Positions 2 through 57,171 are shown, numbered from the stretch's first letter. The stretch is DNA of 64,000 nt from Dehalococcoidia bacterium (GCA_965249315.1 OZ252225.1:1255973-1319972), one strand, 5' to 3'. A program made the numbers and translations. The notes: generated by a model not told the origin, from the letters alone.

Positions 2-106
2 GGGCAACCACGAGGGTTGCCCCTACACCGGGGGAGCTGCGGTAGCTGTGACCTCACCCGCCGCCGTACGGCGGCACCCTCACCCTAGCCCTCTCCCAGA
101 GGGAGG
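2..106 (+). repeat. REP-like palindrome cluster (GTAG-type REP plus a BoxC-like CCCTCACCCTAGCCCTCTCCC...GGGAG element)
   Basis: GGGCAACC-ACGAG-GGTTGCCC-CTAC at 2-26 (reverse complement begins GTAG); CCCTCACCCTAGCCCTCTCCCAGAGGGAGG at 77-106. Confidence 0.7.
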
Positions 107-224
107 CGGCATCACCGCCCAAGCTGGCGGCGTTGGGGCCGGGCTGCTGTTGGAGTGGAGTGGCCATGGTTGAAGCGCGGCGACCCCCGGAGTAGGCTAG
201 GGGCACTATCGGAGGGGAGGGCGC

Positions 225-554
225 ATGGCCAGTCCACGGATCATCGAGCCGACGAACGTCCAGCTTCTGCCGGAGGGCATCGCCATCCAGTGGGCGGACG
301 GCCACATGAGCCTGTACGTGCACCGGGAGCTCCGGCTCCAGTGTCACTGCGCGGAGTGCATCGGGGAGTGGCCAAACCGCCGGCAGGTAGACACCGACGC
401 GGTGCCGTCGGACGTCGTCGCGGTGGAGTACCAGCCGGTGGGCCGCTACGCCATCCAGTTCCTGTGGAGCGACGTCCACTACACGGGCATCTACCCCTAC
501 ACGCTGCTGCGGGAGCTGTGCCCGTGCCCGGCCTGCGCCGGGGACGAAGGGTGA
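225..554 (+). CDS. DUF971 / gamma-butyrobetaine hydroxylase N-terminal-like metal-binding protein
   Basis: IQWADGH, LRLQCHCAEC, VGRYAIQFLWSDVHYTGIYPY and C-terminal CPCPAC; GGAGG RBS upstream. Confidence 0.85.
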   Translation: MASPRIIEPTNVQLLPEGIAIQWADGHMSLYVHRELRLQCHCAECIGEWPNRRQVDTDAVPSDVVAVEYQPVGRYAIQFLWSDVHYTGIYPYTLLRELCPCPACAGDEG

Positions 555-1081
555 CGACCGGGCCACCGATCTCGGCAAGAGGCTGGCCGCTCACCTTCGA
601 CAGGGTCATACAGTACACCCTGGTCTACCTCACGAATCAGGGCAACGTGCTGCTCATCAAGAAGGCCCCAGGACGCTCGCACGCGGGCCAGTGGATCGGC
701 CTCGGAGGCAAGCTGGAGCGCTGCGAGGACCCGGTGGCATCGGCTGTTCGTGAGCTGCAGGAGGAGTCGGGGCTGACCGTCGCAGACCCGAAGCTCCGGG
801 GGACGTTCATCTGGATCGACGACGTGCAGTGCGGGATCGTCTACATCGTCACGGGAACCAGGTGGGCCGGCACGCTGGCCGAGTCCGACGAGGGCGCGCT
901 CCAGTGGCACCGCATCGCCGACCTGCCCTCGCTGGAGGGCCTGGCACGGCACCAGCGGCTCTTCCTGGACCGCATCCTCTGCGACAGTCCCAACTTCTAC
1001 TCAGGCGTCGCGGTCTATCACGGGAACGAGATGGTCGAGTACCTAGACGGCGACAGGTCGTTGGAGCAGCGGAGCGTCTAG
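551..1081 (+). CDS. NUDIX hydrolase (8-oxo-dGTPase-like)
   Basis: Nudix box GGKLERCEDPVASAVRELQEESGL; GTG start overlaps the upstream stop (GTGA). Start uncertain. Confidence 0.85.
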   Translation: MTTGPPISARGWPLTFDRVIQYTLVYLTNQGNVLLIKKAPGRSHAGQWIGLGGKLERCEDPVASAVRELQEESGLTVADPKLRGTFIWIDDVQCGIVYIVTGTRWAGTLAESDEGALQWHRIADLPSLEGLARHQRLFLDRILCDSPNFYSGVAVYHGNEMVEYLDGDRSLEQRSV

Positions 1082-1097
1082 GCCATCGCGCCGTGGG

Positions 1098-1688
1098 CTA
1101 GGCGGTGCCCATCTCCTCGCGGAGGTCCTGGAGGGACTGGGCGGTGCTGCGGCGGTTGGGGTCGGAGCGGGAGGCGGCCCGCTGCTCCAGCGTGCGGATG
1201 TCCGGGACGGTGTGGCAACAGATGAGCGCGGGACCGTCCTGTTGGAAGACGTCTCCGATGGTGTTCTCGAAGGTCTCCAAGTCGTCGAAGTCGTAGGCGA
1301 CGGGGTAGCCCGCCGCGAGGGCCATGTCCCGGAAGTTGACGACACCCGCGCCGGGGATGGGCTGGCCGCCCGTCATGGCGTACATGTCGTTCTGGATGAC
1401 GAAGTGGTAGAAGTTCTTGGGCGCCTTGTTGGCCACGGTGACCAGGGAGCCCAGGTTCATCTCGAGGCTACCGTCGCCGTCGAAGAGGATGACGCGGAGG
1501 TCGGGGCGGGCGAGGGCGAGGCCCAGGGCAATGGAGGAGCCCTTGCCCATGGCGCCCATGGAGAAGTCCCGCCGCGGAGTGTCGGTGACCTTAACCCAGC
1601 TTCGCATGGCCATGAAGATGGGCATGACGACGCCGTTCTCCCGGTAGCGGTTCACCACTCGCATCATGTCAACCTGGTCCATGGCCAT
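1098..1688 (-). CDS. TPP-binding decarboxylase subunit (sulfopyruvate/phosphonopyruvate decarboxylase beta-like)
   Basis: GAMGKGSSIALGLALARP, TPP motif DGDGSLEMN...IQND, YAMTGGQP. Confidence 0.8.
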   Translation of the reverse strand: MAMDQVDMMRVVNRYRENGVVMPIFMAMRSWVKVTDTPRRDFSMGAMGKGSSIALGLALARPDLRVILFDGDGSLEMNLGSLVTVANKAPKNFYHFVIQNDMYAMTGGQPIPGAGVVNFRDMALAAGYPVAYDFDDLETFENTIGDVFQQDGPALICCHTVPDIRTLEQRAASRSDPNRRSTAQSLQDLREEMGTA

Positions 1689-1900
1689 GGGGCGATCCTC
1701 CGTCAGCGGGTTGGAACGTCGCCAGTGTAGAGATGGGGGGCTTCCCGTGTCAATGCTGGGGCCCGCGGCTGCCCTCGGTTGTGTTTTCTGGAGGCTGCGT
1801 CCCCCATTCCCCCGCTTAGGTCCGCCCTACGACCCCGAGGTTTTTGTCCGCGCAGAAACGACGGCGGCTGTAGGAGCGCAAGGGTGCCGACAGGGGGGCG

Positions 1901-3190: not shown

Positions 3191-3199
3191 CGGCGCACG

Positions 3200-4864: not shown

Positions 4865-4918
4865 TGGGCTCTTCCTCAGCAGGGGCGGGCAACTCGAGAG
4901 TCGATAGCCCCAGACGGG

Positions 4919-5389: not shown

Positions 5390-5493
5390 CTCGTACGCTG
5401 CTCCGAATAGAAAAAGCTGAGAGGAGGGGGCGTTCGTCATCTCTCAGCACCGCCGATTGTACGCTTGGAGGCGCGGTGTGTAAAGAGGCGGGC

Positions 5494-5655
5494 GGGCGGC
5501 AGTGCCGCTCTTGCCTGGGGAGGTGGTCCCCGGTGCCGGTTGGGCCCACCCGCCCGGTGCTTTTCTTCTGGGGGCTGCGGCGGCAGAGCCGCCCTAGCAT
5601 GGGCTCCGCGCCCCCATCCGCCGCTATGCGCCGGCCTCTCCCGGAGGGGAACCTC
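5494..5655 (+). repeat. intergenic palindromic mosaic repeat
   Basis: Modules GCGGCAGTGCCGC, TGGGCCCACCCGCCC, TTTTCTTCTGGGGGCTGCG, GGCGGCAGAGCCGCCCTAGCATGGGC and GGCCTCTCCC, shared with many other intergenic regions. Confidence 0.8.
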
Positions 5656-6512: not shown

Positions 6513-6514
6513 CG

Positions 6515-12255: not shown

Positions 12256-12298
12256 AAGCGACCCGCTCCCCACTAGGCTGGGGGAATTATAGCAGGGT

Positions 12299-12440
12299 TG
12301 GGCCCGCCCACTCGCCCTTGATATTGCTGGGGGCGCGGCCCCCAGACCCCACGGCAGTGCTCTGTCCCCTCTGGGTGCTGGCGCTCTCGGAACGACGAAG
12401 GGGAACGCCCTCACCCCTGCCCTCTCCCAGAGGGGGAGAG
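12299..12440 (+). repeat. intergenic palindromic mosaic repeat
   Basis: TTGGGCCCGCCCACTCGCCC, CTGGGGGCGCGGCCCCCAGACCCC, CCCTCACCCCTGCCCTCTCCCAGAGGGGGAGAG. Confidence 0.75.
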
Positions 12441-12454
12441 CCGTTGCATCCCGG

Positions 12455-13412: not shown

Positions 13413-13565
13413 CCCTCACCCCGCCCTCTCCAGAGAGACCTTTGCGCAATGGCGGGCTTTGGAAAGCCCACCCACCCGCCCGATGTTTTTCTTCTGGGGG
13501 CTGCGCTCCCAGACCCCCTCTGCCAGCGCTCTCTCACCCCAGTTGTCTCCCGGAGGAGAGAGAGT
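13413..13565 (+). repeat. intergenic palindromic mosaic repeat
   Basis: CCCTCACCCCGCCCTCTCC, GCCCACCCACCCGCCC, TTTTTCTTCTGGGGGCTGCGCTCCCAGACCCCC. Confidence 0.75.
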
Positions 13566-34935: not shown

Positions 34936-35022
34936 GGCACACCTCCGGGGGTTCGGGGGATCGCGGGGGCACTGTACCACAGTCGGGCAGGGGGAAGGGA
35001 GGCGGGTCACTGCGTGACGGCA

Positions 35023-35419
35023 AAGGCAGGGCAAGCCCTGCACCCTCAGCTTGCTTCGGCAGGGCGTCGGCCCCTTCCTCGGAGAAGCCCGATAACGCTC
35101 CCCTCCAATGCCCTGGTCGAACGGCGGTTTGAGTTGCTTTGAATTGTCCGTCGCGTTTTTTCCGGCCAGTCCTGCCTGGGGCGACGCGGTGCAGCCTGGG
35201 TTTGAGCGGATCTGGACAAGTGGACAAAGGGAGACAAGTCGTATCTGCCAGGCACTGGCCGGACGGTGGTCGGACGGCCCCGCTGGGGGGCGTCGGAAGA
35301 GTCGACAAGGGGGAACAAGTCGTATCTGGCAAGGCGCGAGCCGAACGGAGGCCGAGGGCCTGGGTGAAGGATGGCCCGAAGTCGACAAAGGGAAACAAGG
35401 CAGGGCAAGCCCTGCACCC
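35023..35419 (+). repeat. degenerate tandem repeat of about 80 bp bracketed by a 23-bp perfect direct repeat
   Basis: AAGGCAGGGCAAGCCCTGCACCC at 35023 and 35397; RAGTSGACAARGGGRRACAAG at 35218, 35299 and 35379. Confidence 0.75.
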
Positions 35420-35469
35420 ACACCTTGCGGCGGCAGCCGCCAGGGGGAGACTTGGGTCGGCATTGCGAC

Positions 35470-36150
35470 GTTGGTTGGGCCCACCCGCCCGGCGGCAGTG
35501 CCGCCCTAGCATGGGCCCCCGCTGGGGGCGACTGGCGCGCTGCTGGAGGCGGGAGCTAGGTTCTCCCCTGCGCAGGAGCGACGAAAATCGTCGGGCGCGT
35601 GCACGTGTGCATGGGGGTAGGGTAGGGGATGGAGGGGGTGAGGGGTAGGAGCGGATGGCACCAGCAAAGCTGGCATAGCTTGCGGCGGTTGGGTTGCAGC
35701 GGAGTTGGTCCTTCGTAGGGTCGGTGGTGGGTGGAGGTAGAGATCGTAGCCCTACGGAACGATCTTGGGTGGGCCCACCCGCCCACCCTCGGACCTATTT
35801 GATAACTGGGGGCACATCCCCCAGGCCCCTTGCCAGAGGGGAAACCCCTCTGGACTCCCCCTGACGGGGCGGCAGAGCCGCCTTACCTCTTCCGACCGCC
35901 CCACACCACCAACGCATTTCCCACCCAGCCCACCCTGAGATTCTTCTCTTGGGGGGCTAAGCACCCCCCAGACCCCCGCTGGGGGTGCGGGCGGTTCGCG
36001 AACCGCCCCTACGGTAGGCGCACACCCCACCCCTGGATTCCGGCTCGGAGGCCGGAAGGACGACCCTTCGACAGGTTCAGGGTGAGCGGAGTCAGGACGG
36101 AGGGGACCCCCTCACCCTAACCCTCTCCCGCGCAGGGGGGAGGGGGCATA
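35470..36150 (+). repeat. large intergenic palindromic mosaic
   Basis: GGGTGGGCCCACCCGCCC, TAACTGGGGGCACATCCCCCAG, AGAGGGGAAACCCCTCTGGACTCCCC, GTAG-type GGGCGGTTCGCGAACCGCCCCTAC, CTGGATTCCGGCTCGGAGGCCGGAA, CCCTTCGACAGGTTCAGGGTGAGCGG, CCCTCACCCTAACCCTCTCCC. Confidence 0.85.
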
Positions 36151-36170
36151 GGCGGGAGAGAGGGGTGTTA

Positions 36171-37382: not shown

Positions 37383-37448
37383 TGCAGCCTCCAGGTTCGT
37401 CTTGCTGTGGAACTGAGACTAGCCGGGGGAGTGCTGGGCGTCAAGAGG

Positions 37449-38080
37449 GCAGGGCGAGCCCTGCCCTCTCAGCTTGGGGTGTTGTGACGCAGCGGGGTTT
37501 GGTTTTTCGAAGGGGCGATGGGGCCTGCGGTGGGGGGGTATCCCTACGGAGCGGTCTTGGGTGGGCCCGCCCACCCGCCCTCGGAGGTTATTTTGGTAAC
37601 TGGGGGCACATCCCCCAGGGCGGCTCGCCGGCCCAGAAAGGGGGGCTTCCCCCTCTGGACTCCCCCTGATGGGGCGGCACTGCCGCTTTCGCTCTCGGCG
37701 TTGGGCTGCGATGGAGTTTGGTCCTTCGAAGGGGCGATGGGAGCTGAAGGTGGGTGGGGGGTATCCCTACGGAGCGGTCTTGGGTGGGCCCGCCCGCCCG
37801 CCCTCGGAGGTTATTTTGGTAACTGGGGGCACATCCCCCAGGGCGGCTCGCCGCCCCAGAAAGAAGGGAGACCCCTCCGGACTCCCCCTATGGGTCCCCG
37901 CCCGGCGGCCAGCCGCCAAAGCATGGGCTTGCCACGTTGGGCTGCGGCGAGGTTTGCAGGTGGGAGGCGTCGAGGTTTCTGCCTTCGCAGGAACGACGGC
38001 CCTTCGACAGGCTCAGGGTGAGCGGAATCCAAGACAGAGGGGACTCCCTCACCCCAACCCTCTCCCAGAGGAAGAGGGGA
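37449..38080 (+). repeat. intergenic palindromic mosaic containing a tandem duplication with 223-bp period
   Basis: GTATCCCTACGGAGCGG...GGCTCGCCG near-identical at 37538 and 37761; then CCCTTCGACAGGCTCAGGGTGAGCGG and CCCTCACCCCAACCCTCTCCC. Confidence 0.88.
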
Positions 38081-38101
38081 TGGTTCGGGAGAGGCGAGGC
38101 G

Positions 38102-38764
38102 CTAGGCTTCGCTGCGGTCCCAGCCGGGGAGGGTCCAGTAGCCGAGCCATGGGAGGGGGACGGTGGACTGGAGGCCCTGGGCGCGCTTGAGCCGCTGGAC
38201 GTTGTAGAAGTGGGTGGCCATCTCCGCTTCGCTGTGGCGGAAGTTGCCCTCCAGGGTGGTGCGCCAGAGGCCCGGCCGGTCCGGGTCTGGGTAGAGGGTG
38301 CCAGGGTAGCGATGGGCGATCATGGCGTAGAAGGAGTCGGCGGGCTGTCCGATGCTCTTCTCTCGCACGGAGGCGACAGTCTCGCGGGTGAGGATGTCTC
38401 GCACCAGGGCCAGGGCCTGCTCCAGCTTCTCCAGGACCTCGGGGATGCTCCGCCATCGGGTCTCGTCGAGGTAGCGATGGGGAAGGGCGGCCATGGCGTG
38501 CAGGTCCTCCCAGTAGGGCTTGCGGCCGGGAAAGAGGGCGTCGCCCCAGTTGCGGGAGAGGAGGTAGTGGCGGAAGAGGTGGGAGGCGGCGTGGCTGACG
38601 TTCTGTCGAATGCTCCAGCCGGACCAGCTCCAGTTGGGGCTGGTCCACTCCCACTGGGCGTCGGTGAGGCCGTCCGTCTCCCGGGCGACCATGTCGCCGA
38701 GGCTCTCGTAGATGGGGAAGAGGGTGAGGGCGGGGGCGTCCGCTGCGGGGAGCACTGCGCTCAT
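38102..38764 (-). CDS. DinB-like family protein
   Basis: DGLTDAQW, WSIRQNVSH, HxxxExxxHFYNVQRLK; AAGGAG RBS. Confidence 0.7.
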   Translation of the reverse strand: MSAVLPAADAPALTLFPIYESLGDMVARETDGLTDAQWEWTSPNWSWSGWSIRQNVSHAASHLFRHYLLSRNWGDALFPGRKPYWEDLHAMAALPHRYLDETRWRSIPEVLEKLEQALALVRDILTRETVASVREKSIGQPADSFYAMIAHRYPGTLYPDPDRPGLWRTTLEGNFRHSEAEMATHFYNVQRLKRAQGLQSTVPLPWLGYWTLPGWDRSEA

Positions 38765-38780
38765 GGGGGACTCCTTCAAA

Positions 38781-40100
38781 CTAAGATGACGCCTGCATGG
38801 CTGTCGCTGAGCGGGGCAGGCTGATCGCCGCGACGGCGCCGACGAGGTAGAGGATGGCGGCGTAGGGGAAGATGACCTCGAAGCCGAAGACGCCTACCAG
38901 ACCGCCGAGAATCAGGGGCGGGAAGAAGCCGAAGGCTGCATTGCTTCCCCAGAGAAGGCCGATGAGGCTGCCTTCCAGCCGCTTGCCCTCCCCCAGGTCC
39001 ATTGCGGCGGCCTGGACGAGGGAGTTGATGGAGAACATGACGGTGCCGAGAAGGGCAACCAGCAGGATCAGAGGGGTCCCGCTGTTGCCGATGATCATCA
39101 AGCCAGCAATGACCGCGGAGACGACCATAACACCCACCATGACGGGCTTGCGCCCGATGCGGTCGGAGAGGACGCCGATGAGGGGGCCGCAGACTATGGC
39201 GGCGGCGGTGAGGAGGGAGAGATGGACGCCCTGCATGACGGTGTCCATGCCCAACTCCTCGGAGAGGTAGAGGGGAAGGAAGAGGAGAAGACCCCGGTCG
39301 CCCATGCCGCGGACGCCGGAGACGACGATGAGGGAGAGGAGGCCGCGGTTCCGGAGCAGGCCGCCGAGGTCTCGGAACTGCTGGCCGAGCCCGCGACCTC
39401 CCTGCTTCGTCGAAACGCGGGGGCCGCCGACGTTCCACAGGAGGAGCATGATGCCCACGGCCACGACCAAGGTGGGAACGGCCGCCCACAGAAGCACCGT
39501 CTGCCACGCGATGACGGCCAGCAGTGCGCCAACGAGGATCGGCGCGATTGTCTCCCCAAGGTTGCCCGTCGAGCGGTGCAGCGACAGCATAAGCCCCCGA
39601 CGCTGAGGGTACCGCTGCGAGAGGATGCCGAGGGCCGGAGGGTGCCACAGGGAGCCGGCGGACGCGGCGAAGCTCAGGGCAACGAGGATCAGCAGGTAGG
39701 AGGGCGCGAGCCCCACGACCAGGTAGCCCAGGGCCATAAGCGCCAGGCTGGCACCCAGGAACAGGCCCCGCAGGTGCTGGAGCCGGTCCACCATCATGCC
39801 GCCGCCCATGCTGAAGAGGCCGCCACTGCCCTGCCGGACCGCATCGAGGAGGCCGACCTGGATGGGAGCAAGGCCCAGGGCGGCGTAGATCTGGGGGATG
39901 ATGACCAGGAAGCCGCGCTGGTACATGTGCTGGATGCTGTGGCTGCCGATAAGGGTGGAGGCGACGACCGCGTTCGAGCCCTGGCGCTGGTCCGGGGCGT
40001 TCGGGGTTGCAGTTTGCTCGCGGGCCAAGGCTCCTCCGGGCGTCGTGGATTCGAGGGGGCGCAGCCCTGGTACCCTATCCCGCTCGTCGGCGGGCGTCAA
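38781..40100 (-). CDS. MFS transporter
   Basis: About 12 TM helices, WHPPA, LSDRIGRK; TTG start overlaps the upstream stop. Confidence 0.88.
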   Translation of the reverse strand: MTPADERDRVPGLRPLESTTPGGALAREQTATPNAPDQRQGSNAVVASTLIGSHSIQHMYQRGFLVIIPQIYAALGLAPIQVGLLDAVRQGSGGLFSMGGGMMVDRLQHLRGLFLGASLALMALGYLVVGLAPSYLLILVALSFAASAGSLWHPPALGILSQRYPQRRGLMLSLHRSTGNLGETIAPILVGALLAVIAWQTVLLWAAVPTLVVAVGIMLLLWNVGGPRVSTKQGGRGLGQQFRDLGGLLRNRGLLSLIVVSGVRGMGDRGLLLFLPLYLSEELGMDTVMQGVHLSLLTAAAIVCGPLIGVLSDRIGRKPVMVGVMVVSAVIAGLMIIGNSGTPLILLVALLGTVMFSINSLVQAAAMDLGEGKRLEGSLIGLLWGSNAAFGFFPPLILGGLVGVFGFEVIFPYAAILYLVGAVAAISLPRSATAMQASS

Positions 40101-43385: not shown

Positions 43386-43459
43386 TCCGCCTCCTGTGCG
43401 ATGCGGCGTTGCACTGCCGCAAAAGAGTATACACCAGCCAAGGCGTCGTGGATTGCAGG

Positions 43460-43810
43460 GGGTTTCCCCTACGGTAGGCGTTGGGTGGGCCCACCCACCC
43501 GCCCTCGGACGTTTTTTTGGTAACTGGGGGCACATCCCCCAGAGCGGCTCGCCGCCCTAGAGGGAGGGGAGACTCCTCTGGACTCCCCCTGAGGTACCCG
43601 CGCACTCGGCGGCATCGCCGCTTTCGCTTGGCCTGTCCTCCCACGTTTCCCACCCGCCCACCCTGGGATTTCTTTGGGGGGCTGCGGCGGCATCGCCGCC
43701 CTAGCATGCCCCGCGCCCTCACGCGCCGCTACGCGTCGGCCTCTCCCCCAGGAGAGGCGGGAGGGGTGCCTTCCCCCCACTCCCGGATTCCAGCTCGGAG
43801 GCAATAGCGG
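43460..43810 (+). repeat. intergenic palindromic mosaic repeat
   Basis: CCCTACGG, TTGGGTGGGCCCACCC, GGTAACTGGGGGGCACATCCCCCAG, CTCTGGACTCCCC, GCGGCATCGCCGC twice, GGCCTCTCCCCCAGGAGAGGC. Confidence 0.85.
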
Positions 43811-45984: not shown

Positions 45985-46099
45985 GACCGGACCTCCTGTG
46001 GTGTGCCCTCACCCCAGGCGGGGGCGGCAGTGCCCCAAAGCGCTTATGTTAAGCCACAGCTTGCAGGCAGGTCAAACGTGGAGGGCCTGTAGTGCAACC

Positions 46100-46195
46100 T
46101 TGGGTGGGCCCACCCGCCCGCCCTCGGACGTTTTTGGTAACTGGGGGCACATCCCCCAGACCCCTTGCCAGAGGGGTCTCCCCTCTGGACTCCCA
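46100..46195 (+). repeat. intergenic palindromic mosaic repeat (compact core copy)
   Basis: TTGGGTGGGCCCACCCGCCCGCCCTCGGACGTTTTTGGTAACTGGGGGCACATCCCCCAGACCCCTTGCCAGAGGGGTCTCCCCTCTGGACTCCC. Confidence 0.88.
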
Positions 46196-46235
46196 CTGAC
46201 GAGGAACACGCGGCGGGTAGCGGTATAATGGCCGC

Positions 46236-46946
46236 ATGGGCACGATTTGGGTGGGGACGTCCGGCTACAACTACGCTGAGTGGAAGGGGAGCTTCTACCC
46301 GCAGGAGCTGCCCGCCTCGCAGATGCTTGGCTACTACTCGGCGCGCTTCTCGACGGTTGAGATCAACTACTCGTTCTACCGGCTGCCGAGTGAGAAGAGC
46401 ATCGGCAGGTGGGCGGAGACGACGCCGACCGGCTTCGCCTTCACGCTGAAGGCCCCGCGCCGGATCACCCACGAGGCGCGCCTGCGGGACTGCGAGGAGC
46501 TGACGGCGCTCTTCTGCGCTCGAGCGCAGACGCTGGGGCCCAAGCTGGGGGTGCTGCTGTTCCAGCTGCCGCCGTACCTCCGTGCGAACGTTGAGGCGCT
46601 GGAGGAGTTCGTGGGGTGGCTGCCGCCCGGCGTGCGGGCCGCGTTCGAGTTCCGTCACGCGTCCTGGCTGTGCGAAGAGGTGCACGCGTGCCTGCGGGCA
46701 CGCAACCTGGCGCTGTGCGTGACGGACAGCGAGACGACAACGACGCCCCTGGTGAGGACGGCGGACTACGCCTACTTCCGCCTGCGGGACGAGGGCTACG
46801 AGGAGGGCGACATCCGCGGCTGGGCGGACACGGTGCGGGAGGCAGCTGAAAGCGGCGCGGACGTGTTCGTCTACTTCAAGCACGAGGAGGCGGGCACGGG
46901 ACCGGTCTTCGCCCGCGCGCTGCTGGAGGCCGTGGGGGCGCGATGA
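46236..46946 (+). CDS. DUF72 family protein
   Basis: VGTSGYNYAEWKGSFYP, VEINYSFYR, FTLKAPRRITH, LFQLPP, EFRHASW; TATAAT 6 nt before the ATG suggests a leaderless mRNA. Confidence 0.93.
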   Translation: MGTIWVGTSGYNYAEWKGSFYPQELPASQMLGYYSARFSTVEINYSFYRLPSEKSIGRWAETTPTGFAFTLKAPRRITHEARLRDCEELTALFCARAQTLGPKLGVLLFQLPPYLRANVEALEEFVGWLPPGVRAAFEFRHASWLCEEVHACLRARNLALCVTDSETTTTPLVRTADYAYFRLRDEGYEEGDIRGWADTVREAAESGADVFVYFKHEEAGTGPVFARALLEAVGAR

Positions 46947-49663
46947 GGAAGCTGCAGAGCTACCGTCGCAAGCGGGACTTCGCCCGCACGCCGGAGCCGG
47001 GGCCGGAGGCGGGAGTCGAGTCGCAGGCGAGTCTGCGCTTCGTGGTGCAGAAGCACGCGGCGCGACGGCTCCACTACGACTTCCGGCTGGAGATGGACGG
47101 CGTCCTGAAGTCGTGGGCGGTGCCCAAGGGCCCGTCCGTGGACCCTCAGCAGAAACGCTTCGCGGCGCTGGTGGAGGACCACCCGCTGGACTACGCTACC
47201 TTCGAGGGAGTCATCGCCGACGGGAACTACGGGGCCGGGCACGTCATCGTGTGGGACACGGGCATCTACTCGCCCGACGACGATAACCGGCTCGCCTTCG
47301 GCGACCGGACCGCCTCCGAGGAGCGAATGCGCCGCCAGCTGGAGGCGGGGAAGCTCTCGATCACGCTGCGGGGACACAAACTGCGTGGCTCGTGGACGCT
47401 GGTGCGCACGGCCAAGGGGCCGACGGAATGGCTGCTGATCAAGCACCGGGACGCCCACGCCGACCCGGAGCGGGAGGTGCTGGAGCACGAGGGATCGGTG
47501 CTCACGGGGGCCACGATCACGGACCTGCGGGCAGGGCGCTCGGCGGGGCATCCGGGCGGGAGCGCGCGGGAGCAGGCGCAGGCCCTGGGACGCCGCGCTC
47601 CCTACCCGACGACGGTGAAACCGATGCTGGCCCGGCTGGTGGACGGGCCCTTCTCCCATCCGGCGTGGCTGTTCGAGCCGAAGCTGGACGGCTACCGGAT
47701 CGTGGCCTTCGTGCAGCCGGGGGGCGTGACCCTGCGCAGTCGCAACGGCAAGGACCTGACGTCGCTGCTTCCGGAGGTGGCGCAGGAGTTGGCGGAGCAG
47801 GCCGAGGAGGAGATGGTCCTGGACGGCGAGGTGGTGGCCCTTAACGCCGAGGGCCTGCCGGACTTCGGCCTGCTGCAGGAGGCGCTGGGCCGGGACCGCC
47901 GCCTGGGGTCGGCAGGGCCGGCGGCGCCGCTGGTCTACTACCCGTTCGACTTGCTCTACCTGGCCGGGGTCTCCCTTCGGCAGACGCCGCTGATGCAGCG
48001 CAAGGGCCTGCTGGGCCAGGCGCTGGTGCCGGGGGACGCCGTGCGGCCGGTGGAGTACGTGGAGGGCAGCGGCGAGGCGTTCTTCGAGGCGGCGGTGGCC
48101 CTGGGGCTGGAGGGGATGCTGGCCAAGCGCAAGGACAGCAGCTACGAGCCCGCGGCCCGCAGCGCGGCCTGGCTCAAGGTGAAGGCCGTGCAGTCGCAGG
48201 ACTTCGTCGTCGCGGGCTACACGCCCGGCGAGGGGGCGCGGGCCAGCACGCTGGGGGCCATCCTCGTGGGCCTGTACGACGGAGGGAAGCTGCAGTTCGC
48301 CGGGCGCGTGGGCAGCGGCTTCGACCAGGCGGAGCTGGACGATCTGCTGGCGCTGATGGGACCGCTGCACACACGTCGCTGTCCCTTCGAAACGACGCCG
48401 GACCTGCAGGGCTCGGCGGCCCAGTGGGTGCGGCCAAACCTGGTGGCGCGGGTCAAGTTCTCGCAGTGGACCAAGGACGGACTGCTACGTGCGCCGGTCT
48501 TCGAGGGCCTTCGACGGGACGCGTCGCCCCGCTCCGTGACGCGGGAGGAGGGCGCGGACGTGCGCCAACTGCTCGGCGACGATGCCAGGACTGCGGAGGG
48601 CCCGCAGAGCGAGACGGAGGCCGTGCTGGCGCAGCTTTCGGGGCGGGAGGACAGGGTGCTCCTGGAACTGGCGGGAGAGCGGCTGTCGCTGACCAACCTC
48701 AACAAGGATCTGTGGCCCGCGACGTCGGATGCGCCGCCGGTGACGAAGCGGGACATGATCCGCTACTACGTCCAGATTGCGCCGGCGCTGCTGCCCCATC
48801 TGCAGGACCGCCCGATGACGCTGACCCGCTACCCGAACGGCATCGGTGGCAAGAGCTTCTACCAGAAGCACTGGGGAGGCCCGATGCCCGGCTTCGTGGA
48901 GACGGTGCGGCCCTTCTCCTCGCACCGGGAGGGTGACGGCGAGTACATCCTGGTGGACAACCTGGCGACGCTGGTCTGGCTGGCCCAGCTGGCCGACATC
49001 GAGCTGCACCCGTGGCTCTCCCGGGTGGTCCGGGAGCCGGACGCGCTGCACACCGGCACGGTGCTCACCGGGTCGAAGGAGGCGGTGGAGTCGAGCGTGC
49101 TCAACCACCCGGACTTCCTGGTGTTCGACCTGGACCCGTACACGTACTCGGGGAAGGAGGCGGCGGGGGCGGAGCCGGAGCTCAACCGTCGCGCCTTCTC
49201 GCAGGCCGTGGAGGTGGCGCATTCGCTGCGGGAGCTGCTGGAAGGGCTGACGCTGAAACCGTTCCTCAAGACGTCCGGCAGGACGGGGCTGCACATCTAC
49301 GTGCCCGTGCTGCGGCAGTACGACTTCTCCGTGACGCGCAGGGCCTGCCAGACAGTGGGGCAGTTCCTGCTGCAGCAGCGGTTCCGGGACGTCACACTGG
49401 AGTGGTCCGTGGAGAAGCGGACGGGGAAGGTGTTCCTGGACTACAACCAGAACTCCCGGAGCCGGAACATGGCGGCGGCGTACTCGCTGCGACCGCTGCC
49501 CGGCGCGCCGGTCTCGACGCCGCTGAGCTGGGAGGAGCTGGAGCACGTCTTCCCAACGGACTTCACGATCTGGAGCGTACCACAGCGGGTGGAGCGGCTG
49601 GGCGACCTGTGGGGCGGCGTGCTGGAGGCGAAGCACGACCTGAGGGGGCTGCTGGAGGGGTGA
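46943..49663 (+). CDS. ligD: NHEJ DNA ligase D (phosphoesterase-ligase-polymerase order)
   Basis: FVVQKHAARRLHYDFRLE, SWAVPKGPS, EPKLDGYR, LEGMLAKR, WLKVK, RYPNG, FDLDP, KTSGRTGLH. Confidence 0.96.
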   Translation: MRKLQSYRRKRDFARTPEPGPEAGVESQASLRFVVQKHAARRLHYDFRLEMDGVLKSWAVPKGPSVDPQQKRFAALVEDHPLDYATFEGVIADGNYGAGHVIVWDTGIYSPDDDNRLAFGDRTASEERMRRQLEAGKLSITLRGHKLRGSWTLVRTAKGPTEWLLIKHRDAHADPEREVLEHEGSVLTGATITDLRAGRSAGHPGGSAREQAQALGRRAPYPTTVKPMLARLVDGPFSHPAWLFEPKLDGYRIVAFVQPGGVTLRSRNGKDLTSLLPEVAQELAEQAEEEMVLDGEVVALNAEGLPDFGLLQEALGRDRRLGSAGPAAPLVYYPFDLLYLAGVSLRQTPLMQRKGLLGQALVPGDAVRPVEYVEGSGEAFFEAAVALGLEGMLAKRKDSSYEPAARSAAWLKVKAVQSQDFVVAGYTPGEGARASTLGAILVGLYDGGKLQFAGRVGSGFDQAELDDLLALMGPLHTRRCPFETTPDLQGSAAQWVRPNLVARVKFSQWTKDGLLRAPVFEGLRRDASPRSVTREEGADVRQLLGDDARTAEGPQSETEAVLAQLSGREDRVLLELAGERLSLTNLNKDLWPATSDAPPVTKRDMIRYYVQIAPALLPHLQDRPMTLTRYPNGIGGKSFYQKHWGGPMPGFVETVRPFSSHREGDGEYILVDNLATLVWLAQLADIELHPWLSRVVREPDALHTGTVLTGSKEAVESSVLNHPDFLVFDLDPYTYSGKEAAGAEPELNRRAFSQAVEVAHSLRELLEGLTLKPFLKTSGRTGLHIYVPVLRQYDFSVTRRACQTVGQFLLQQRFRDVTLEWSVEKRTGKVFLDYNQNSRSRNMAAAYSLRPLPGAPVSTPLSWEELEHVFPTDFTIWSVPQRVERLGDLWGGVLEAKHDLRGLLEG

Positions 49664-49667: not shown

Positions 49668-49785
49668 GGCGGCGGCAGAGCCGCTTTCGCTTACCCTTCC
49701 TCCCCGCTCCACCGCCGCGTTTCCCACCCGCCCGCCCTCGGAAGTTCTTCTGGGGGCTGCGCCCCCCGGGCCCCCGCACCCTCGC
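49668..49785 (+). repeat. intergenic palindromic mosaic repeat
   Basis: GCGGCAGAGCCGCTTTCGCT, TTTCCCACCCGCCCGCCCTCGG, TTCTTCTGGGGGCTGCGCCCCCC. Confidence 0.8.
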
Positions 49786-49895
49786 GCGACGCTGTGCGTC
49801 GGAAAGGATTCCCATACAGCCACTTCCCACGCGCATTCAAGAAATACGTATACATACACACACGCACGCAGAGTGGTGGTGTCGGACCGGATGGC

Positions 49896-49934: not shown

Positions 49935-51443
49935 ATGAACTACGCAAAGCAGATCATAGAACGTTTCGGCGGTCAGTCCTCGCTGGCTGCCCTACTTGGA
50001 AAACGCCAGAGTACGGTCCAGCACTGGGCTCGGACCGGAAGAATACCGTCGCAGTGGCAGAAGCGACTCCTGGAGCTTGCCTTTCAGCAAGGAATTCGGC
50101 TGGAACCCAAGGACTTCGTCGCAAGTGACACGCCCACCATCAGTCCGGCGAGCGGAAAGCTTGGCGTGCTGATGGTGGGGTTGGGAGCAGTGTCCTCCAC
50201 CTTCATCGCCGGCGTCGAACACATCCGGCGCGGAACCGGACGGCCGGTGGGCTCTCTCACCCAACTGGGCACCATCCGCCTTGGCAAGCGACCCGACAGG
50301 CGGACTCCCCTCATTAGGGAATTCGTTCCGCTGGCAGACCTCGACCAGATGGTATTCGGAGGTTGGGACCCCATACCAGACGACGCCTTTGAAGCTGCCA
50401 CGAAGGCCGGCGTACTAGACCGCCACGAACAATTGGAACCAGTCGCGGATTTCTTGAAGTCGATAGAACCGATGCCAGCCATCTTCGACAACGAGTACGT
50501 GCGGGCCATCAATGGGAGCAACGTCAACGTGACCGGCTCCAAGCGTGCTTCGGTGGAGGCCATACGGAGCGACATCCGACGCTTCAAGGAGGAAAACGAT
50601 TGTGACCGGTTGGTGATGGTCTGGTGTGCCTCCACCGAAAAATTCATTAGGGAGGCAGCCGTTCACCAGGACATCGAGAGCTTTGTTGGTGGGATTCATG
50701 AAGACGACGAGAATATAGCGCCTTCAATGCTGTACGCCTACGCGGCTCTGATGGAGGGCGTGCCCTTTGTGAACGGGGCCCCCAACCTCACCGTGGACAT
50801 TCCCGCCTTGGAAAGGCTGGCTAAGAGCCAAGGCGTGCCCGTGTGCGGCAAAGACTTCAAGACGGGACAGACCCTGGTGAAAACCGTCCTGGGGCCGATG
50901 CTCAAAGCCAGGATGCTCGGGCTAGACGGCTGGTTCTCCACGAACATACTGGGAAACCGGGACGGCGAGGTCCTCGACGAACCGGAGAACTTCAAGACCA
51001 AGGAGGAGTCCAAACTGGGAGTCCTCGAGTACATCCTGCAACCCGACCTGTACCCGGAGCTGTATTCCGACGCGTATCACAAAGTGCGCATCAACTATTA
51101 CCCTCCACGAGGAGACAACAAGGAGGGGTGGGACAACATCGACATTTTCGGCTGGCTCGGACGCCGGATGCAGATCAAAGTCAACTTCCTATGCTCGGAC
51201 TCGATTCTTGCCGCACCCTTAGTCCTTGACCTCGTCCTGTTCATGGACCTGGCACAGCGTGCCGGCATGTCGGGCATCCAGGAGTGGTTGTCGTTTTACT
51301 TCAAGAGCCCGCAGCACGCACCGGAAGTCTATCCGGAGCACGACCTATTCATACAGCAGACGAAGCTCAAGAACACCCTCCGGTGGCTTATGGGGGAGGA
51401 ACAGGTCACCCATCTCGGCATGGAGTATTACCGGCGCGGTTGA
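49935..51443 (+). CDS. ino1: myo-inositol-1-phosphate synthase with N-terminal Cro-like HTH domain
   Basis: GLGAVSST, VWCASTE, NGAPN, GKDFKTGQT, STNILGNRDG, RGDNKEGWD, DSILAAPLVLDL, FYFKSP; the first ~62 aa (FGGQSSLAALLGKRQSTVQHWARTGRIP) look like an HTH. Confidence 0.92.
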   Translation: MNYAKQIIERFGGQSSLAALLGKRQSTVQHWARTGRIPSQWQKRLLELAFQQGIRLEPKDFVASDTPTISPASGKLGVLMVGLGAVSSTFIAGVEHIRRGTGRPVGSLTQLGTIRLGKRPDRRTPLIREFVPLADLDQMVFGGWDPIPDDAFEAATKAGVLDRHEQLEPVADFLKSIEPMPAIFDNEYVRAINGSNVNVTGSKRASVEAIRSDIRRFKEENDCDRLVMVWCASTEKFIREAAVHQDIESFVGGIHEDDENIAPSMLYAYAALMEGVPFVNGAPNLTVDIPALERLAKSQGVPVCGKDFKTGQTLVKTVLGPMLKARMLGLDGWFSTNILGNRDGEVLDEPENFKTKEESKLGVLEYILQPDLYPELYSDAYHKVRINYYPPRGDNKEGWDNIDIFGWLGRRMQIKVNFLCSDSILAAPLVLDLVLFMDLAQRAGMSGIQEWLSFYFKSPQHAPEVYPEHDLFIQQTKLKNTLRWLMGEEQVTHLGMEYYRRG

Positions 51444-51479: not shown

Positions 51480-51562
51480 TTTCTGGGGGCTCCGCTGCGG
51501 CGGGGCTTGGTCCTTCGAAGGGGGATGGTGAGTGGGCGGGGGTGAGTCGCATCCCTACGGGC
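51480..51562 (+). repeat. partial mosaic repeat
   Basis: TTTCTGGGGGCT, GCTGCGGCGGGGCTTGGTCCTTCGAAGGGG, ATCCCTACGG. Confidence 0.55.
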
Positions 51563-52736: not shown

Positions 52737-52756
52737 CGGGGGAGGGCGCCGCGGCG

Positions 52757-54384: not shown

Positions 54385-54396
54385 GCACACAGCAAG

Positions 54397-54550
54397 GCGG
54401 CGGCGGCATCGCCGCTTTTGCTTGCGGTGTTGGGCTGCGGCGGAGTCTGATCCTTCGGAGGGGTGGGACCTTACGATGGTTGGGCCCACCCGCCCACCCT
54501 ATGAGTTTTTCTTGGGGGGCACCCCCCCAGACCCCCGCTGGGGGCGGTAG
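54397..54550 (+). repeat. intergenic palindromic mosaic repeat
   Basis: GCGGCATCGCCGCTTTTGCT, GGGCTGCGGCGGAGTCTGATCCTTCG, TTGGGCCCACCCGCCCACCCT, TTTTTCTTGGGGGGCACCCCCCAGACCCCCGCTGGGGG. Confidence 0.82.
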
Positions 54551-54556
54551 AGAGGT

Positions 54557-54940
54557 ATGAAGTACGTACGCGTGCAAGCGCGGTATACGGGTAGAACGGG
54601 AAAACCTGTTGGAATCTTCACTGCCTGTCACCATCTGAAGCGGAAGGGGATTCTCACTGCGGAAGAGGCCAGGCTGTTCAAGAACATCGATAGCTGGTTC
54701 GACCTGTATCTTCCCAATCCTCCGTTCTATCAGGGTGGCAACAAGATCCGCGGCATCACGTGGTTCAAGTCCTCCGCGAGGGGAATGCTCAAGGCGCTGG
54801 TCCCACTACTGGCTCTGCTCAGCAAGTACGACGTGACATGCGACGTCGTTGAGACGGACGACCCCGGCTGCATCGTGTACGAAGACGAGTGGCAAGTCGG
54901 GACCGTTTTATGCGGCCTAGAGCTGCCCGCCCCGCCCTAG
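54557..54940 (+). CDS. hypothetical protein (127 aa, lower GC)
   Basis: AGAGG RBS and ATG; protein-like composition (DDPGCIVYEDEWQV); flanked by mosaic repeats. Confidence 0.65.
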   Translation: MKYVRVQARYTGRTGKPVGIFTACHHLKRKGILTAEEARLFKNIDSWFDLYLPNPPFYQGGNKIRGITWFKSSARGMLKALVPLLALLSKYDVTCDVVETDDPGCIVYEDEWQVGTVLCGLELPAPP

Positions 54941-55030
54941 GAACTCCTGGTAACTAGGGCACGGCCCCCAGACCCCCGCGCCCTCACCCGCCGCTGTGCG
55001 GCGGCCTCTCCCCCAGGAGAGGCGGGAGGC
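54925..55030 (+). repeat. intergenic palindromic mosaic repeat
   Basis: GGTAACTAGGGCACGGCCCCCAGACCCCCGCGCCCTCACCCGCCGCTGTGCGGCGGCCTCTCCCCCAGGAGAGGCGG, near-identical to about 55733-55798. Confidence 0.82.
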
Positions 55031-55590: not shown

Positions 55591-55635
55591 AACATTTCGC
55601 CTACAGAGCGCGTTCGGACGGCCTGTGGTCCGACC

Positions 55636-55800
55636 TTGGGTGGGCCCACCCGGCGGCAGTGCCGCTCTTGCTGGGGTGTCGAGTCGCGGCGGAGTGTGGT
55701 CCTTCGAGAGACGGTGGTTGTCTTCTGGAGGCGCGGCCCCCAGACCCCCGCGCCCTCACCCGCCCGCTGTGCGGCGGCCTCTCCCCCAGGAGAGGCGGAT
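55636..55800 (+). repeat. intergenic palindromic mosaic repeat
   Basis: TTGGGTGGGCCCACCC, GCGGCAGTGCCGC, TGGTCCTTCGA, CGGCCCCCAGACCCCCGCGCCCTCACCC, GCCTCTCCCCCAGGAGAGGC. Confidence 0.82.
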
Positions 55801-55850
55801 GCGCACTGGGTGACCGGAAGGGGGAGGGGGCCTGCAGGGGACAATCGTAG

Positions 55851-55927
55851 TGGCGACCCGGAGGGGATTCGAACCCCCGATCTCCGCCTTGACAGGGCGG
55901 TATGTTAGGCCACTACACCACCGGGCC
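55851..55927 (-). tRNA. tRNA-Asp (GTC)
   Basis: Acceptor stem GGCCCGG/CCGGGTC, anticodon arm CCGCC-CTGTCAA-GGCGG, T-loop GGTTCGAATCC, encoded CCA end. Confidence 0.97.
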
Positions 55928-56000
55928 GCGTGTCTCCGTCGAACGGTCTGACGCCGTGGCGCTCAGACCTGGACGTGTCGTCTTGTGAATCGAGCGCCGG

Positions 56001-56708
56001 TCACCTGCCGGCGTCGAGCTGCTCCTTCTGCCATGCGTAGTCGACCTGGCCCTCGTAGAACCGGTCGGGGTTTTCCACCGCCCATATCTGCTTACGTATG
56101 ACGTAGTTGTCCGGTTGCACGGCGACCCCGCGCCGCCACGCCGCTACGGCCTCGTCCACCCTGCCCTGCCGGTACAGGCCCAGCCCTTCCCGGTAGTGCT
56201 CCAGCGCCTCGCCTGCGACGTCGTCTGCGCCCCCCGTCGCCGCGCCGTCGACGGAGGCGCCGGCGGCCCAGCTTTCGGCGGCCTGCGCGTACTCGGGTTT
56301 ACGGATGTCGAAGCCGCCCCGCTTGATGTACCGGACGACCCCGTCAGCGTCGACGAAGACGGTGTTGGGGATGGCCTTGCAGTCGAAGAGCTGGCCGAGG
56401 ACGTTCTCCCCATCGACGACCGTTGGGAAGGTGGCCGCGGCCTTTTCGACGTAGGGACGCGCCTTGTCGGGGCCCTGGGCGTCGACGGCTACGGAGAGGA
56501 CCTCAACGCCCTTCGACTGGTGCCTCTGGTAGTAGTCCTGCCAGACCGGCAGTTGCTCGCGGCAGGCTCACCAGGAGGCCCACATGAAGAGGACAAGCTG
56601 TTTGCCTCGATAGGAATCGAGGGCGACTTCGCCGCCGTCCAAGGACTGCAGTGTGAGTGGGGGGAGCACCCCTCCCACGCCCACGCTCGTTTCGTACTGG
56701 ACCGCCAC
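56001..56708 (-). CDS. predicted selenoprotein: TlpA/ResA-like thioredoxin fold with WASW-U-AC and a C-terminal TPR-like helix pair (235 aa)
   Basis: Manual translation from GTG 56708 gives ...LDSYRGKQLVLFMWASW*ACREQLPVWQ...AIPNTVFVD...NYVIRKQIWAVENPDRFY; the single in-frame TGA (56568-56570) sits at the redox site and is followed by the hairpin CTGCC-GGTCT-GGCAG. Confidence 0.88.
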
Positions 56709-56753
56709 AGCTTCTCTCCGGGGTAGGTTTCTGCGAGGTCGACGACCTCGCGG

Positions 56754-56987
56754 CTAGTAGGCTCAGCCCACGCCGCCGTAGCCGACGGTGACGAGCTCGC
56801 CCTCGATGATGACGGGGGTTATGCGCTCTCCGCCCGTGAGCCGCTCCAGCTCCTCGGTGGCGCCGTCGACGAGTGTGACGTCGATCTGCTTGAAGGGGAT
56901 GCTGTCCTTCTGCAGGTCCGCCAAGGCAGCCTGGGAGTAGGCGCAGTCCGGGTGCGTGTAGATGGTAAGCGTCGTCTCCTGGGTCAC
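56754..56987 (-). CDS. predicted selenoprotein: glutaredoxin-like UXX-star-type protein ending GYGGVG-U-A-Y-stop
   Basis: IYTHPDCAYS...RITPVI; TGA (56763-56765) is followed by GCC TAC TAG and then the hairpin GCGAGGTC-GTC-GACCTCGC. Confidence 0.85.
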
Positions 56988-57171
56988 GGCATCACCTCGT
57001 ACAGGGGCTGAAGTTCCAGTGTACCCGTGCGGGCGGCTCTCGTAAAGGCGGCACTGCCGGCGGCCAGCCGCCCTAGCATGGGCCTACGCCGTCACGCCTG
57101 GTGAGCTGTGGGAGCAGATGGCGTCGAGGTTCCACTGCCTGCGCAGAAACGACGTGACGACTTTGGGGGTG

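Follow-up and report, generated by a model that had tools for sequence, protein, structure and literature searches.

Orientation of intergenic repeat mosaics in a Dehalococcoidia genome relative to replication-type strand asymmetry

Most long intergenic regions in a stretch of 64,000 nucleotides of a Dehalococcoidia genome (G000; ‘the window’ means this whole stretch) are filled by short hairpin modules, which a preliminary description placed in about 15 loci and read as shuffled members of one shared kit, all facing the same way. The question raised by the locus is what kind of repeat this kit represents, and what its common orientation follows when the neighbouring genes point in either direction.

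Repeat loci of the window

Comparison of the intergenic DNA with itself by BLAST gave 18 merged repeat stretches totalling 3,591 bp, one of which is a tRNA, and recovered 14 of the 15 loci. The fifteenth, near 1784, was missed by BLAST at E 1e-4, and the stretch concerned (1760..1895, + strand) matched nothing by BLAST or module HMMs, but it does hold degenerate modules within an insertion of about 120 bp specific to G000, the gap alignment setting 134 bp of G000 against 16 bp in the congeneric genome G001.

The other loci, all on the + strand, combine the core and module families F2 to F7. The window begins with a mosaic at 2..155 (BLAST stretches 2-33 and 71-155), in which an F6/F5-type module, a CCCTCACCC ... 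CCTCTCCC hairpin, starts at 71 by its F6 profile match. The mosaic at 5486..5650 comprises F7 (5495), an F4 short core (5545) and F2 (5578) by BLAST and profiles, and is missing from the orthologous G001 site. Profile matches place a short core (12296-12374, or 1268268-1268346 in genome coordinates) and then F6 (12399) in 12296..12442, and BLAST and profile agree on an F4 short core at 13466..13528. The first of two large mosaics, at 35111..36160, carries F2 (35490), F3 (35690), a full core (35762-35865), F4 (35926) and F6 (36051) by both methods and is flanked on both sides by minus-strand genes according to the gene calls. The second, resolved by profiles at 37442..38084, has F3 (37485), core (37555-37671) and F7 (37673) followed by F3 (37702), core (37778-37892) and F6 (37987); its orthologous G001 site has only about 28 bp. 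A further mosaic at 43455..43794 unites core (43478-43593), F7 (43608), F4 (43652), F2 (43685) and F5 (43714) by BLAST and profiles, while a profile match shows one full core standing alone (46097-46200) between divergent genes at 46080..46216.

The remaining loci were found by both BLAST and profiles. F7 (49671) and an F4 short core (49726) at 49670..49802 lie immediately 3' of the LigD stop codon, and are followed by an F3 module (51494) at 51480..51560, by F7 (54402), F3 (54431) and a short core (54474-54536) at 54385..54548, and by a degenerate short core and then F5 (54979) at 54931..55029. The mosaic of F7 (55652) and F5 (55751) at 55616..55805 adjoins a tRNA-Asp on the minus strand (55851-55927), and an F2 module (57061) lies at 57046..57158. 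Against Rfam 15, only a tRNA reached the gathering score in the window, and at E<=5 the region 35400-38200 gave chance-level matches only.

The claim that asymmetric modules read on the + strand held under systematic scanning, in which all 40 nhmmer profile matches in the window were on + (core 7, F4 11, F7 6, F3 5, F2 4, F6 4, F5 3) and minus-strand copies in comparable numbers were not found. Repeat-to-repeat HSPs inside the window were direct in 35 of 35 cases, with none inverted. As exact strings, the long asymmetric modules occur on + only within the window; the 8-9-mers CCCTCACCC (8 plus, 4 minus), CCTCTCCC (9 plus, 5 minus) and CCCTACGG (6 plus, 1 minus) have minus-strand matches in it too, several of them inside genes, and GGGTGGGCCCACCC and GCGGCAnnGCCGC, being palindromic, have no polarity of their own. 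The mosaics are co-oriented and keep a loosely fixed module order, as had been described, and all four arrangements of flanking genes are seen around them.

Orientation and GC skew across the chromosome

A profile scan of the whole genome on both strands, which the preliminary description had proposed to set against GC skew, found 74 core copies, all intergenic (46 plus, 28 minus). Among 151 mosaic loci, 150 are internally co-oriented and one is mixed, and the number of orientation runs is 21, where 67.9 would be expected (z = -8.65), so that their co-orientation is not due to chance. The orientation equals the sign of the flanking GC skew (+-5 kb) at 134/151 loci and at 128 of the 137 loci where |skew| > 0.015. 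Seven of seven module families follow the skew sign, with strong-skew counts from 25/31 to 52/54. Gene strand and repeat orientation are uncorrelated (r = -0.14), and the skew itself is a chromosome-strand effect, since the top-strand skew of positive blocks is +0.046 in + genes and +0.048 in - genes and the third-position skew shifts by about +-0.10 whichever way the gene points. The rule is repeated in G001, where 94/102 matches and 27/27 core copies agree with the skew. Hence, orientation follows replication-type strand asymmetry and not transcription in this genus, as had been supposed from the window.

The term ‘leading strand’ rests here on the general rule of G over C, because the cumulative skew is patchy, without a V shape (skew is positive over 44%, negative over 14% and near zero over 43% of the genome), and origin, terminus and replichores could not be placed on it. 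The dnaA gene maps to 1,363,686 (1.364 Mb), next to a block of positive skew, and a search of G000 for clusters of at least four DnaA-box-like sites gave none. Repeat orientation offers a second, skew-independent marker of ancestral fork direction in rearranged metagenome-assembled genomes.

Such linkage could be a product of history only, in which local copying preserves orientation and inversions of segments flip skew and repeats together, with no causal tie to replication or present-day selection. Local co-orientation is in fact observed in every genome examined, even those with no skew signal, for example in G028 (15 runs against 38 expected) and in the multi-copy loci of G194 (8/10 uniform in orientation). 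However, random founders predict that about half of the blocks carry the wrong sign, whereas 17 of the 21 orientation blocks agree with the skew sign (p = 0.0036), including every block with |skew| > 0.035. G001 obeys the rule with the same sign, as do 9/11 strong-skew loci of the distant genome G123, where none is fully opposite. This purely historical account is thus very unlikely.

The polarity is not general to the repeat family. It is missing in G194, where insertion orientation is random (17/34 agree with skew; 23 runs against 21.6 expected), and partial in G123 (37/55). It is undetectable in G028, in which 22/48 agree with a weak skew, that is, no link; the 86 copies on its contig C5 (1.13 Mb) correlate at -0.21 with the balanced third-position skew, which is so weak that the value is uninformative.

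The conserved core and its mobile form

The conserved core of about 85-105 nt is made of five parts, namely a C-tract box with a G3N1 G-quadruplex (G4) motif on the complementary strand, a T-run, one hairpin whose conserved loop contains ACAT, another whose loop is free, and a GGACTCCC tail. As ssDNA, the solitary core at 46097-46200 folds into three hairpins (-26.5 kcal/mol, z = -3.28). The loop of hairpin 2 is conserved, and the stem of hairpin 3 keeps its pairing through a GC-to-AU change (13 sequences vs 13). Core identity is about 80-87% in G194 and G123, and 21 columns are invariant among 28 sequences of 5 genomes; across genera and families, conservation is higher in the core than at the element termini. 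It is present in 36/201 sampled genomes of the class, representing 32/143 genera, and in 15/41 relatives, whereas several genomes in the same family, each a single contig, yielded none. In an RNA-library run (X19, assembled contigs), parts of an amidohydrolase gene are covered, core copies are without cover, and high summed depth is confined to the F6/F5-type module, a pattern that proves neither transcription nor silence.

MITEs are non-autonomous derivatives of DDE transposons, an example being the Correia elements of Neisseria. The core of G194 lies within just such a frame, an element of 143 bp bounded by terminal inverted repeats (TIRs) of 12 bp and target-site duplications (TSDs) of 4 bp, the copies of this subfamily being nearly identical. 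Exact matches to the TIR GAGCYTGTCTCA number 19 in the forward and 19 in the reverse orientation, where the control gave 0, and they pair at 143 bp; the TSD is perfect in 6/10 copies and has 3/4 bases or is unclear in the others. Such TIRs and TSDs are what a DDE-type transposase working in trans leaves behind. Unlike what the MITE model would lead one to expect, no autonomous partner was found in G194, where a search allowing 0 or 1 mismatch gave no plus/minus pair of TIRs separated by 0.7-3 kb. For G000 itself, no TSDs are recognisable, as it is adjoining modules that border the 59 cores and 8 arm pairs inspected, and TIRs are not demonstrable, as conserved sequence continues beyond both arms. 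Its inverted arms share TCGAAGGG in 8 pairs lying 161-595 bp apart; one end bears GTTTGGTCCTTCGAAGGGG and the other CCCTTCGACAGGYTC, and the spacing is about 280-300 bp in 4/8 pairs.

Like MITEs, the present repeats are short, non-coding, multicopy and intergenic, with a structured interior carried from site to site. They differ in that the copies of G000 and G001 show no TIR or TSD and are fused into co-oriented mosaics, that across genera the interior is conserved better than the termini, and that polarity relative to GC skew holds for about 90% of the copies. The copies in this genus are old and decaying and differ between the two congeners; those of G000 have a mean identity of 83% and do not cluster by species. 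The kit is read here as an old, decaying non-autonomous MITE-type family native to Dehalococcoidia-class Chloroflexota, with its MITE form displayed by the relative G194.

The preliminary description had instead framed the kit as REP/BIME arrays moved by a RAYT. The basic BIME unit is described as two inverted REPs, with one RAYT per family (PMC6006769). Both systems form intergenic mosaics of short GC-rich palindromic units in many combinations, and ssDNA hairpins are proposed for both. CTAC-containing motifs adjoin many cores, in that CTACGG and CTACGC flank them, yet they do not mark the foot of any defined REP hairpin. With a genome only 92% complete, the RAYT could lie outside the assembly. 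However, PF01797 (Y1 transposase, RAYT) has no match in G000 nor in any of 41 genomes of the order (0/41), with controls positive in 6/14, inverted REP doublets are absent and a single mosaic of 151 is mixed, and the TIR and TSD of G194 imply another mechanism. A RAYT-like layout is not seen either. Four neighbouring pairs of repeats are inverted, and the genes that they enclose are not transposases; they encode an Era-like GTPase, molybdopterin oxidoreductase, amidohydrolase, CTP synthase, transaldolase and Rho, that is, housekeeping or metabolic proteins, plus one PIN-domain protein. The REP/BIME frame is largely refuted and retains hardly any likelihood.

The statement that the window has no transposase stands, and none of the tested families was found in the genome either. 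Neither TnpB (PF07282) nor the IS110 transposase (PF01548) was detected in G000. The search for Y2 (PF04986) also gave no match there, but is uninformative as its control was positive nowhere. PF00078 retrieved only a group II intron, which with an IS3-like pair makes up the mobile genes seen in G000.

Readings of the polarity

The account tentatively preferred here, at somewhat less than even confidence, is that fork direction decided which copies of an old, decaying MITE family were retained or inserted. The mosaics would be differently deleted, duplicated or nested remnants of longer composite units, and their retention would depend on orientation at the replication fork. Copies that place the more structured, G4-capable strand on the lagging-strand template would be lost or selected against, and the survivors would be those with their C-tract strand in the G-rich leading strand. 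Among the 66 tight G4 motifs of the genome, 61 are within repeats, and tight motifs lie opposite the G-rich strand in 34/39 cases in positive-skew blocks and 10/10 in negative-skew blocks; 84 core copies hold the motif 61 times on the minus strand and 0 times on the plus strand. Loose G4 motifs outside repeats follow the skew (for example, 83 vs 38 in coding DNA of positive blocks), which implies no general avoidance of G4 on that strand. G4-based loss fits poorly with G123, partly polar with G4 in only 11/72 copies, and with G028, G4-rich (60/86 copies) and without a link to skew. The seven module families also count against loss, as each would need filtering unless all descend from one composite unit. 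If orientation-dependent loss is true, the genus offers a natural experiment on the tolerance of hairpins and G4 on two template strands. A wider role of G4 as a general selective agent was considered and rejected, since the loose motifs outside repeats track skew and the cross-genome pattern is mixed.

The same polarity may arise at entry, if fork-coupled mobilisation inserts copies into one template strand in one orientation, by ssDNA hairpin recognition as in IS200/IS605 or by a clamp-biased transposase, with later modules entering earlier ones in a fixed relative orientation. In the proposed comparison of occupied and empty sites in a close relative, orthologous sites of G000 and G001 hold different module subsets, and lineage-specific presences are skew-concordant in 46/48 cases in G000 and 24/25 in G001 (70/73 together). 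As these are as polar as the rest, polar insertion fits equally well, gain and loss being inseparable without an outgroup. The co-orientation of 150/151 mosaics agrees with it, and F2-type hairpins sit at the same place inside the C-tract box in several copies (window 35470-35520; G000 1726 kb), which suggests site- and orientation-specific nesting. On the other side, no Y1 transposase was found in 41 genomes of the order, G000 has no TnpB or IS110 transposase and shows only the IS3-like pair and the intron as mobile genes, the young related MITE of G194 inserts without polarity, and the G000 copies are old. Strand-specific insertion is possible though doubtful; polar insertion would imply that uncultured Chloroflexota possess an unknown enzyme for fork-coupled mobilisation.

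IS200/IS605 elements are not known to carry TIRs or TSDs. Their hairpins are prominent, as here, and they share the orientation bias with the present repeats (134/151 mosaics in G000, 94/102 matches in G001); they differ in that no TnpA/TnpB was found in G000 and that the G194 relative has TIRs and TSDs. The replication-linked bias is a behaviour shared with IS200/IS605 and not proof of membership. In that group the bias is tied to replication direction (PMC3971601), and it has precedents in IS91, IS110 and several DDE families (PMC3971601 and PMC6006769). Replication-linked orientation is already known for whole insertion sequences, and the present repeats add a new case. In the literature searched, no description was found of a short non-coding repeat family more than 90% polar in genomes without a detected Y1; the supplementary per-family orientation tables of PMC3971601 might hold comparable cases.

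The core (C-tract/G4 box, ACAT-loop hairpin and second hairpin) might also be a strand-specific ssDNA element, moved by an undescribed fork-coupled enzyme other than a Y1 transposase or taken over as a host polar signal on the lagging-strand template. Either version is unlikely but would explain both the class-wide conservation and the replication polarity of more than 90% in this genus. As a domesticated cis-element of the host, working either in single-stranded form on one of the two template strands or by binding a protein with polarity, the core could act in priming/restart or in fork or chromosome orientation, the MITE being its vehicle only. Its conservation above that of the element termini, the 21 invariant columns, the conserved hairpin 2 loop, the compensatory change in hairpin 3 and the spread over 32 genera speak for domestication, whereas the patchy distribution (15/41 relatives), the lack of polarity in G194, the high turnover between congeners and the failure to identify a partner protein make it very unlikely, as does the difference between the genome's own skewed oligomers and those of the element.

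Polar oligomers such as Chi and KOPS/AIMS resemble the repeats in having an orientation coordinated with replication-type asymmetry over the whole chromosome. Unlike the 100-nt intergenic mobile repeat, they are words of 5-8 nt that also occur in genes, and the GCTGG-type skewed words of this genome are distinct from the repeat. Outside the repeats, the G-rich strand is enriched in Chi-like GCTGG oligomers. The idea that the repeat is a carrier of such polar words was rejected, as the top skewed oligomers outside repeats are of GCTGG type and, among the top words listed, only CTGGAC occurs in the core.

Orientation of the repeat mosaics

Inspection of 15 intergenic loci named in the preliminary description confirmed that they are genuine mosaics, in which the same short hairpin modules recur. 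In an all-against-all BLAST of intergenic DNA, 3,591 bp of the window fell into 18 repeat stretches, a tRNA among them. Of the 15 loci, 14 were recovered in this way; the one missed, near 1784, is a ~120-bp insertion relative to the congeneric genome G001, with degenerate modules. Repeat matches internal to the window number 35, every one of them direct. Profiles were made for the core, a main unit of ~105 nt, and for six further modules, and all 40 of their hits in the window lie on the + strand. Minus-strand matches occur as well for the shortest strings (8-9-mers) alone, and some of these are within genes. The mosaics are adjoined by genes of both strands; A (35111-36160) and B (37442-38084), for instance, are found among minus-strand genes.

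The source genome (G000) carries 74 copies of the core, 46 plus and 28 minus, none within called genes. The seven families pooled make up 151 mosaic loci, 22 kb altogether, and 150 of these are internally co-oriented. Orientation comes in blocks, with 21 runs observed against 67.9 expected (z = -8.65). The flips keep step with GC skew: the orientation of 134 of the 151 loci matches the sign of the flanking skew (±5 kb), as does that of 128 of the 137 loci with |skew| > 0.015. With ±25 kb skew the observed agreements number 130, whereas circular shifts of the labels never gave more than 122. When the mosaics were masked, 17 of the 21 orientation blocks still matched the skew sign (p = 0.0036), and skew in the four discordant blocks is no more than 0.032. 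The rule holds in each of the seven families alone, the agreement per family in strong skew ranging from 25/31 to 52/54. When all pairs of intergenic repeats were counted in an unsupervised way, there were 990 direct versus 127 inverted pairs at equal skew sign, and 48 direct versus 528 inverted pairs at opposite signs.

The proposed independence from transcription is borne out by the low correlation of orientation with the local gene-strand share (r = -0.14). Flanking genes, taken in the element's own frame, are arranged as -- at 45 loci, -+ at 44, +- at 32 and ++ at 30 (n = 151). Orientation is tied to a replication-type asymmetry, not to genes.

GC skew and replication

The window spans bases 1,255,973-1,319,972 of the G000 assembly, a single contig of 2,279,006 bp (66% G+C, 92% complete). 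The G000 seryl-tRNA synthetase shares at most 65% identity with those in public Dehalococcoidia MAGs, which marks the organism as an uncultured representative of this Chloroflexota class. The GC skew is patchy, without a V shape, being positive over 44%, negative over 14% and near zero over 43% of the genome. Top-strand skew in the positive blocks is +0.046 over plus-strand and +0.048 over minus-strand genes, and in the negative blocks -0.047 and -0.041, respectively. Third codon positions carry a block effect of about ±0.10, which is added to the coding-strand bias. The most skewed oligomers of the G-rich strand, repeats left out, are of the GCTGG type (e.g., GCGCTGGA, 204 vs 83), and resemble the Chi-rich leading strands known elsewhere. 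The strand asymmetry of G000 is therefore of the replication type.

The dnaA gene lies at 1,363,686 (~1.364 Mb of G000), at the edge of a positive-skew block; a search of the genome for a DnaA-box cluster found none. The skew patches are taken to be traces of inversions in the past, or possibly of joins in the assembly. Viewed together with the position of dnaA, they suggest that inversions were numerous, that the replichores are laid out in a strongly unbalanced way, or that the assembly contains joins. Since skew and repeats are both reversed by an inversion, the link between the two records the fork direction at the time when the signals were laid down.

A decaying family of MITE origin

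The preliminary description had proposed a REP-like system. This was not supported, as the Y1 transposase (PF01797, RAYT) was found in neither G000 nor any of 40 relatives, whereas the control searches gave hits. TnpB and IS110 transposases were also absent from G000, a search for IS91 transposases gave no hit there and neither did its control, and Rfam holds no family matching the repeats. Where two neighbouring mosaics point in opposite directions, as in four pairs, the genes between them are ordinary. By definition, BIMEs consist of REPs paired in inverted orientation and have a RAYT (PMC6006769). The only mobile genes seen in G000 are those of an IS3-like element, present twice, and of a group II intron, of which a second copy is partial. 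Apart from the IS3-like element, its family assigned from layout alone, no recent insertion sequence was seen in G000; the 1,337-bp copies of this element (636721-638057 and 1795799-1797135) are 100% identical, and each has inverted ends and two ORFs (94 and 316 aa). The intron (407088-408800, plus strand) encodes a 570-aa RT-maturase-HNH protein between two Rfam Intron_gpII matches, and its second copy, near 655500, is truncated.

The origin of the core is visible in G194, a relative in which it sits within a sharply bounded 143-bp element. The terminal inverted repeats of this element are 12 bp long and gave 19 exact matches in the forward and 19 in the reverse direction, vs 0 in the control. 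Its target duplications are of 4 bp and vary in sequence; 6 of 10 copies have a perfect one. These features make it a classical MITE, although a longer partner sharing its ends was not found in G194. Related-looking inverted arms, which share TCGAAGGG, occur in G000 as 8 pairs 161-595 bp apart, four of them at ~280-300 bp; no target duplications are visible at these pairs, and conserved sequence extends past the arms.

The core or its two-hairpin half was found in 15 of 41 relatives and, across a sample of the class, in 36 of 201 genomes and 32 of 143 genera. As single-stranded DNA, either strand of the core is predicted to fold into three hairpins (z -2.8 to -5.5). When 28 copies from five genomes were aligned, 21 columns proved to be invariant and the loop of hairpin 2 to be conserved; hairpin 3 contains a GC-to-AU compensatory pair (13 vs 13 sequences). 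Several cores hold an F2 GGCGGCAnnGCCGCC hairpin at the same place inside the C-tract box (e.g., window 35470-35520 and G000 1726155-1726303), and in other copies hairpins 2 and 3 are separated by a mini-hairpin of 14 nt of the GCGGCTCGCCGC type. Both look like site-specific nesting of still smaller elements.

The congener G001 shares 85-91% identity with G000 in syntenic genes and follows the same skew rule, with 94 of 102 family hits (across 18 loci) and 27 of 27 core copies concordant. Turnover of the repeats is seen in 44 orthologous intergenic gaps that differ by at least 60 bp. For example, mosaic B occupies ~610 bp in G000 and the orthologous site ~28 bp in G001; certain orthologous sites contain different module sets. 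The mean identity of core copies is 0.83 within G000, 0.85 within G001 and 0.83 between them, and the copies do not cluster by species; therefore, the family predates the split. The repeats are a MITE-derived, class-wide family, whose copies in this genus are old and decaying. Longer composite units that were differentially deleted, duplicated and nested would be expected to leave behind modules that are co-oriented and loosely fixed in order.

The polarity is strongest in the genus of G000 and G001 and is not a constant of the family, as skew agreement differs among other genomes. The young, near-identical subfamily of G194 agrees with skew in 17 of 34 copies tested, with 23 runs against 21.6 expected for 43 copies. 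The 86 copies on contig C5 of G028 show no link to a very weak skew (22/48; r = -0.21) and form 15 runs against 38 expected. Among the 72 copies of G123, agreement is 37/55 (p = 0.007), and at |skew| > 0.03 nine of 11 loci are uniform and concordant, none being fully opposite.

The complement of the core C-tract box is a tight G-quadruplex (G4) motif. Of the 66 G3N1 motifs in G000, 61 lie inside the repeats; the strand opposite the G-rich one carries 34 of 39 where the block is positive and 10 of 10 where it is negative. Polarity may arise if a copy whose more structured, G4-capable strand falls on the lagging-strand template is lost faster or is harmful. It is known from classical work in E. 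coli that the deletion of asymmetric hairpin inserts on the lagging strand depends on their orientation. The random orientation of the young copies in G194 and the polarity of the old ones in G000 and G001 agree with such loss. The matter is decided neither by the G4 pattern of G123 and G028, which is mixed, nor by the equal polarity of lineage-specific modules (46/48 concordant in G000, 24/25 in G001). Polar insertion by an unseen enzyme is nearly as likely as orientation-dependent loss. Replication-linked orientation bias is documented for IS200/IS605, IS91, IS110 and several DDE families (PMC3971601); PMC2718517 describes gene-end bias only. The literature searched, subscription journals and supplements aside, gave no account of these repeats or of a replication-polarised Chloroflexota MITE.

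Module abundance and neighbouring genes

The CCCTCACCC...CCCTCTCCC hairpin module (~33 bp; window 38046-38078, also 36100-36135) reached a summed depth of 13,000-25,000 in contigs of three DNA metagenome runs, against ~20-40 for its adjoining genes, and was joined to dozens of different flanks. Therefore, it is extremely abundant in those communities, and is probably present in many organisms. Its depth in an RNA-library run was 589 vs 2-5.

Between mosaics A and B lies an Amidohydro_2 (PF04909) gene (36171-37382, minus strand) of a large paralogue family; over this gene, a 19-kb query matched G001 in more than 20 places, with identities of 65-79%. When contigs of the RNA-library run X19, labelled as a sponge metagenome, were compared over 33000-39000, they matched this gene with 0-8 differences per piece. 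A complete LigD of 906 aa (46943-49663, plus strand), comprising phosphoesterase, ATP-dependent ligase and primase-polymerase domains, has its stop codon directly adjoining a repeat mosaic. The myo-inositol-1-phosphate synthase (49935-51443, plus strand) has a weak N-terminal YdaS-like helix-turn-helix match, below the cut-off (E = 2.6e-4). A 1,079-aa 'eukaryote-like' repeat protein with CARDB domains and many leucine-rich repeats is encoded at 57535-60774 on the minus strand.
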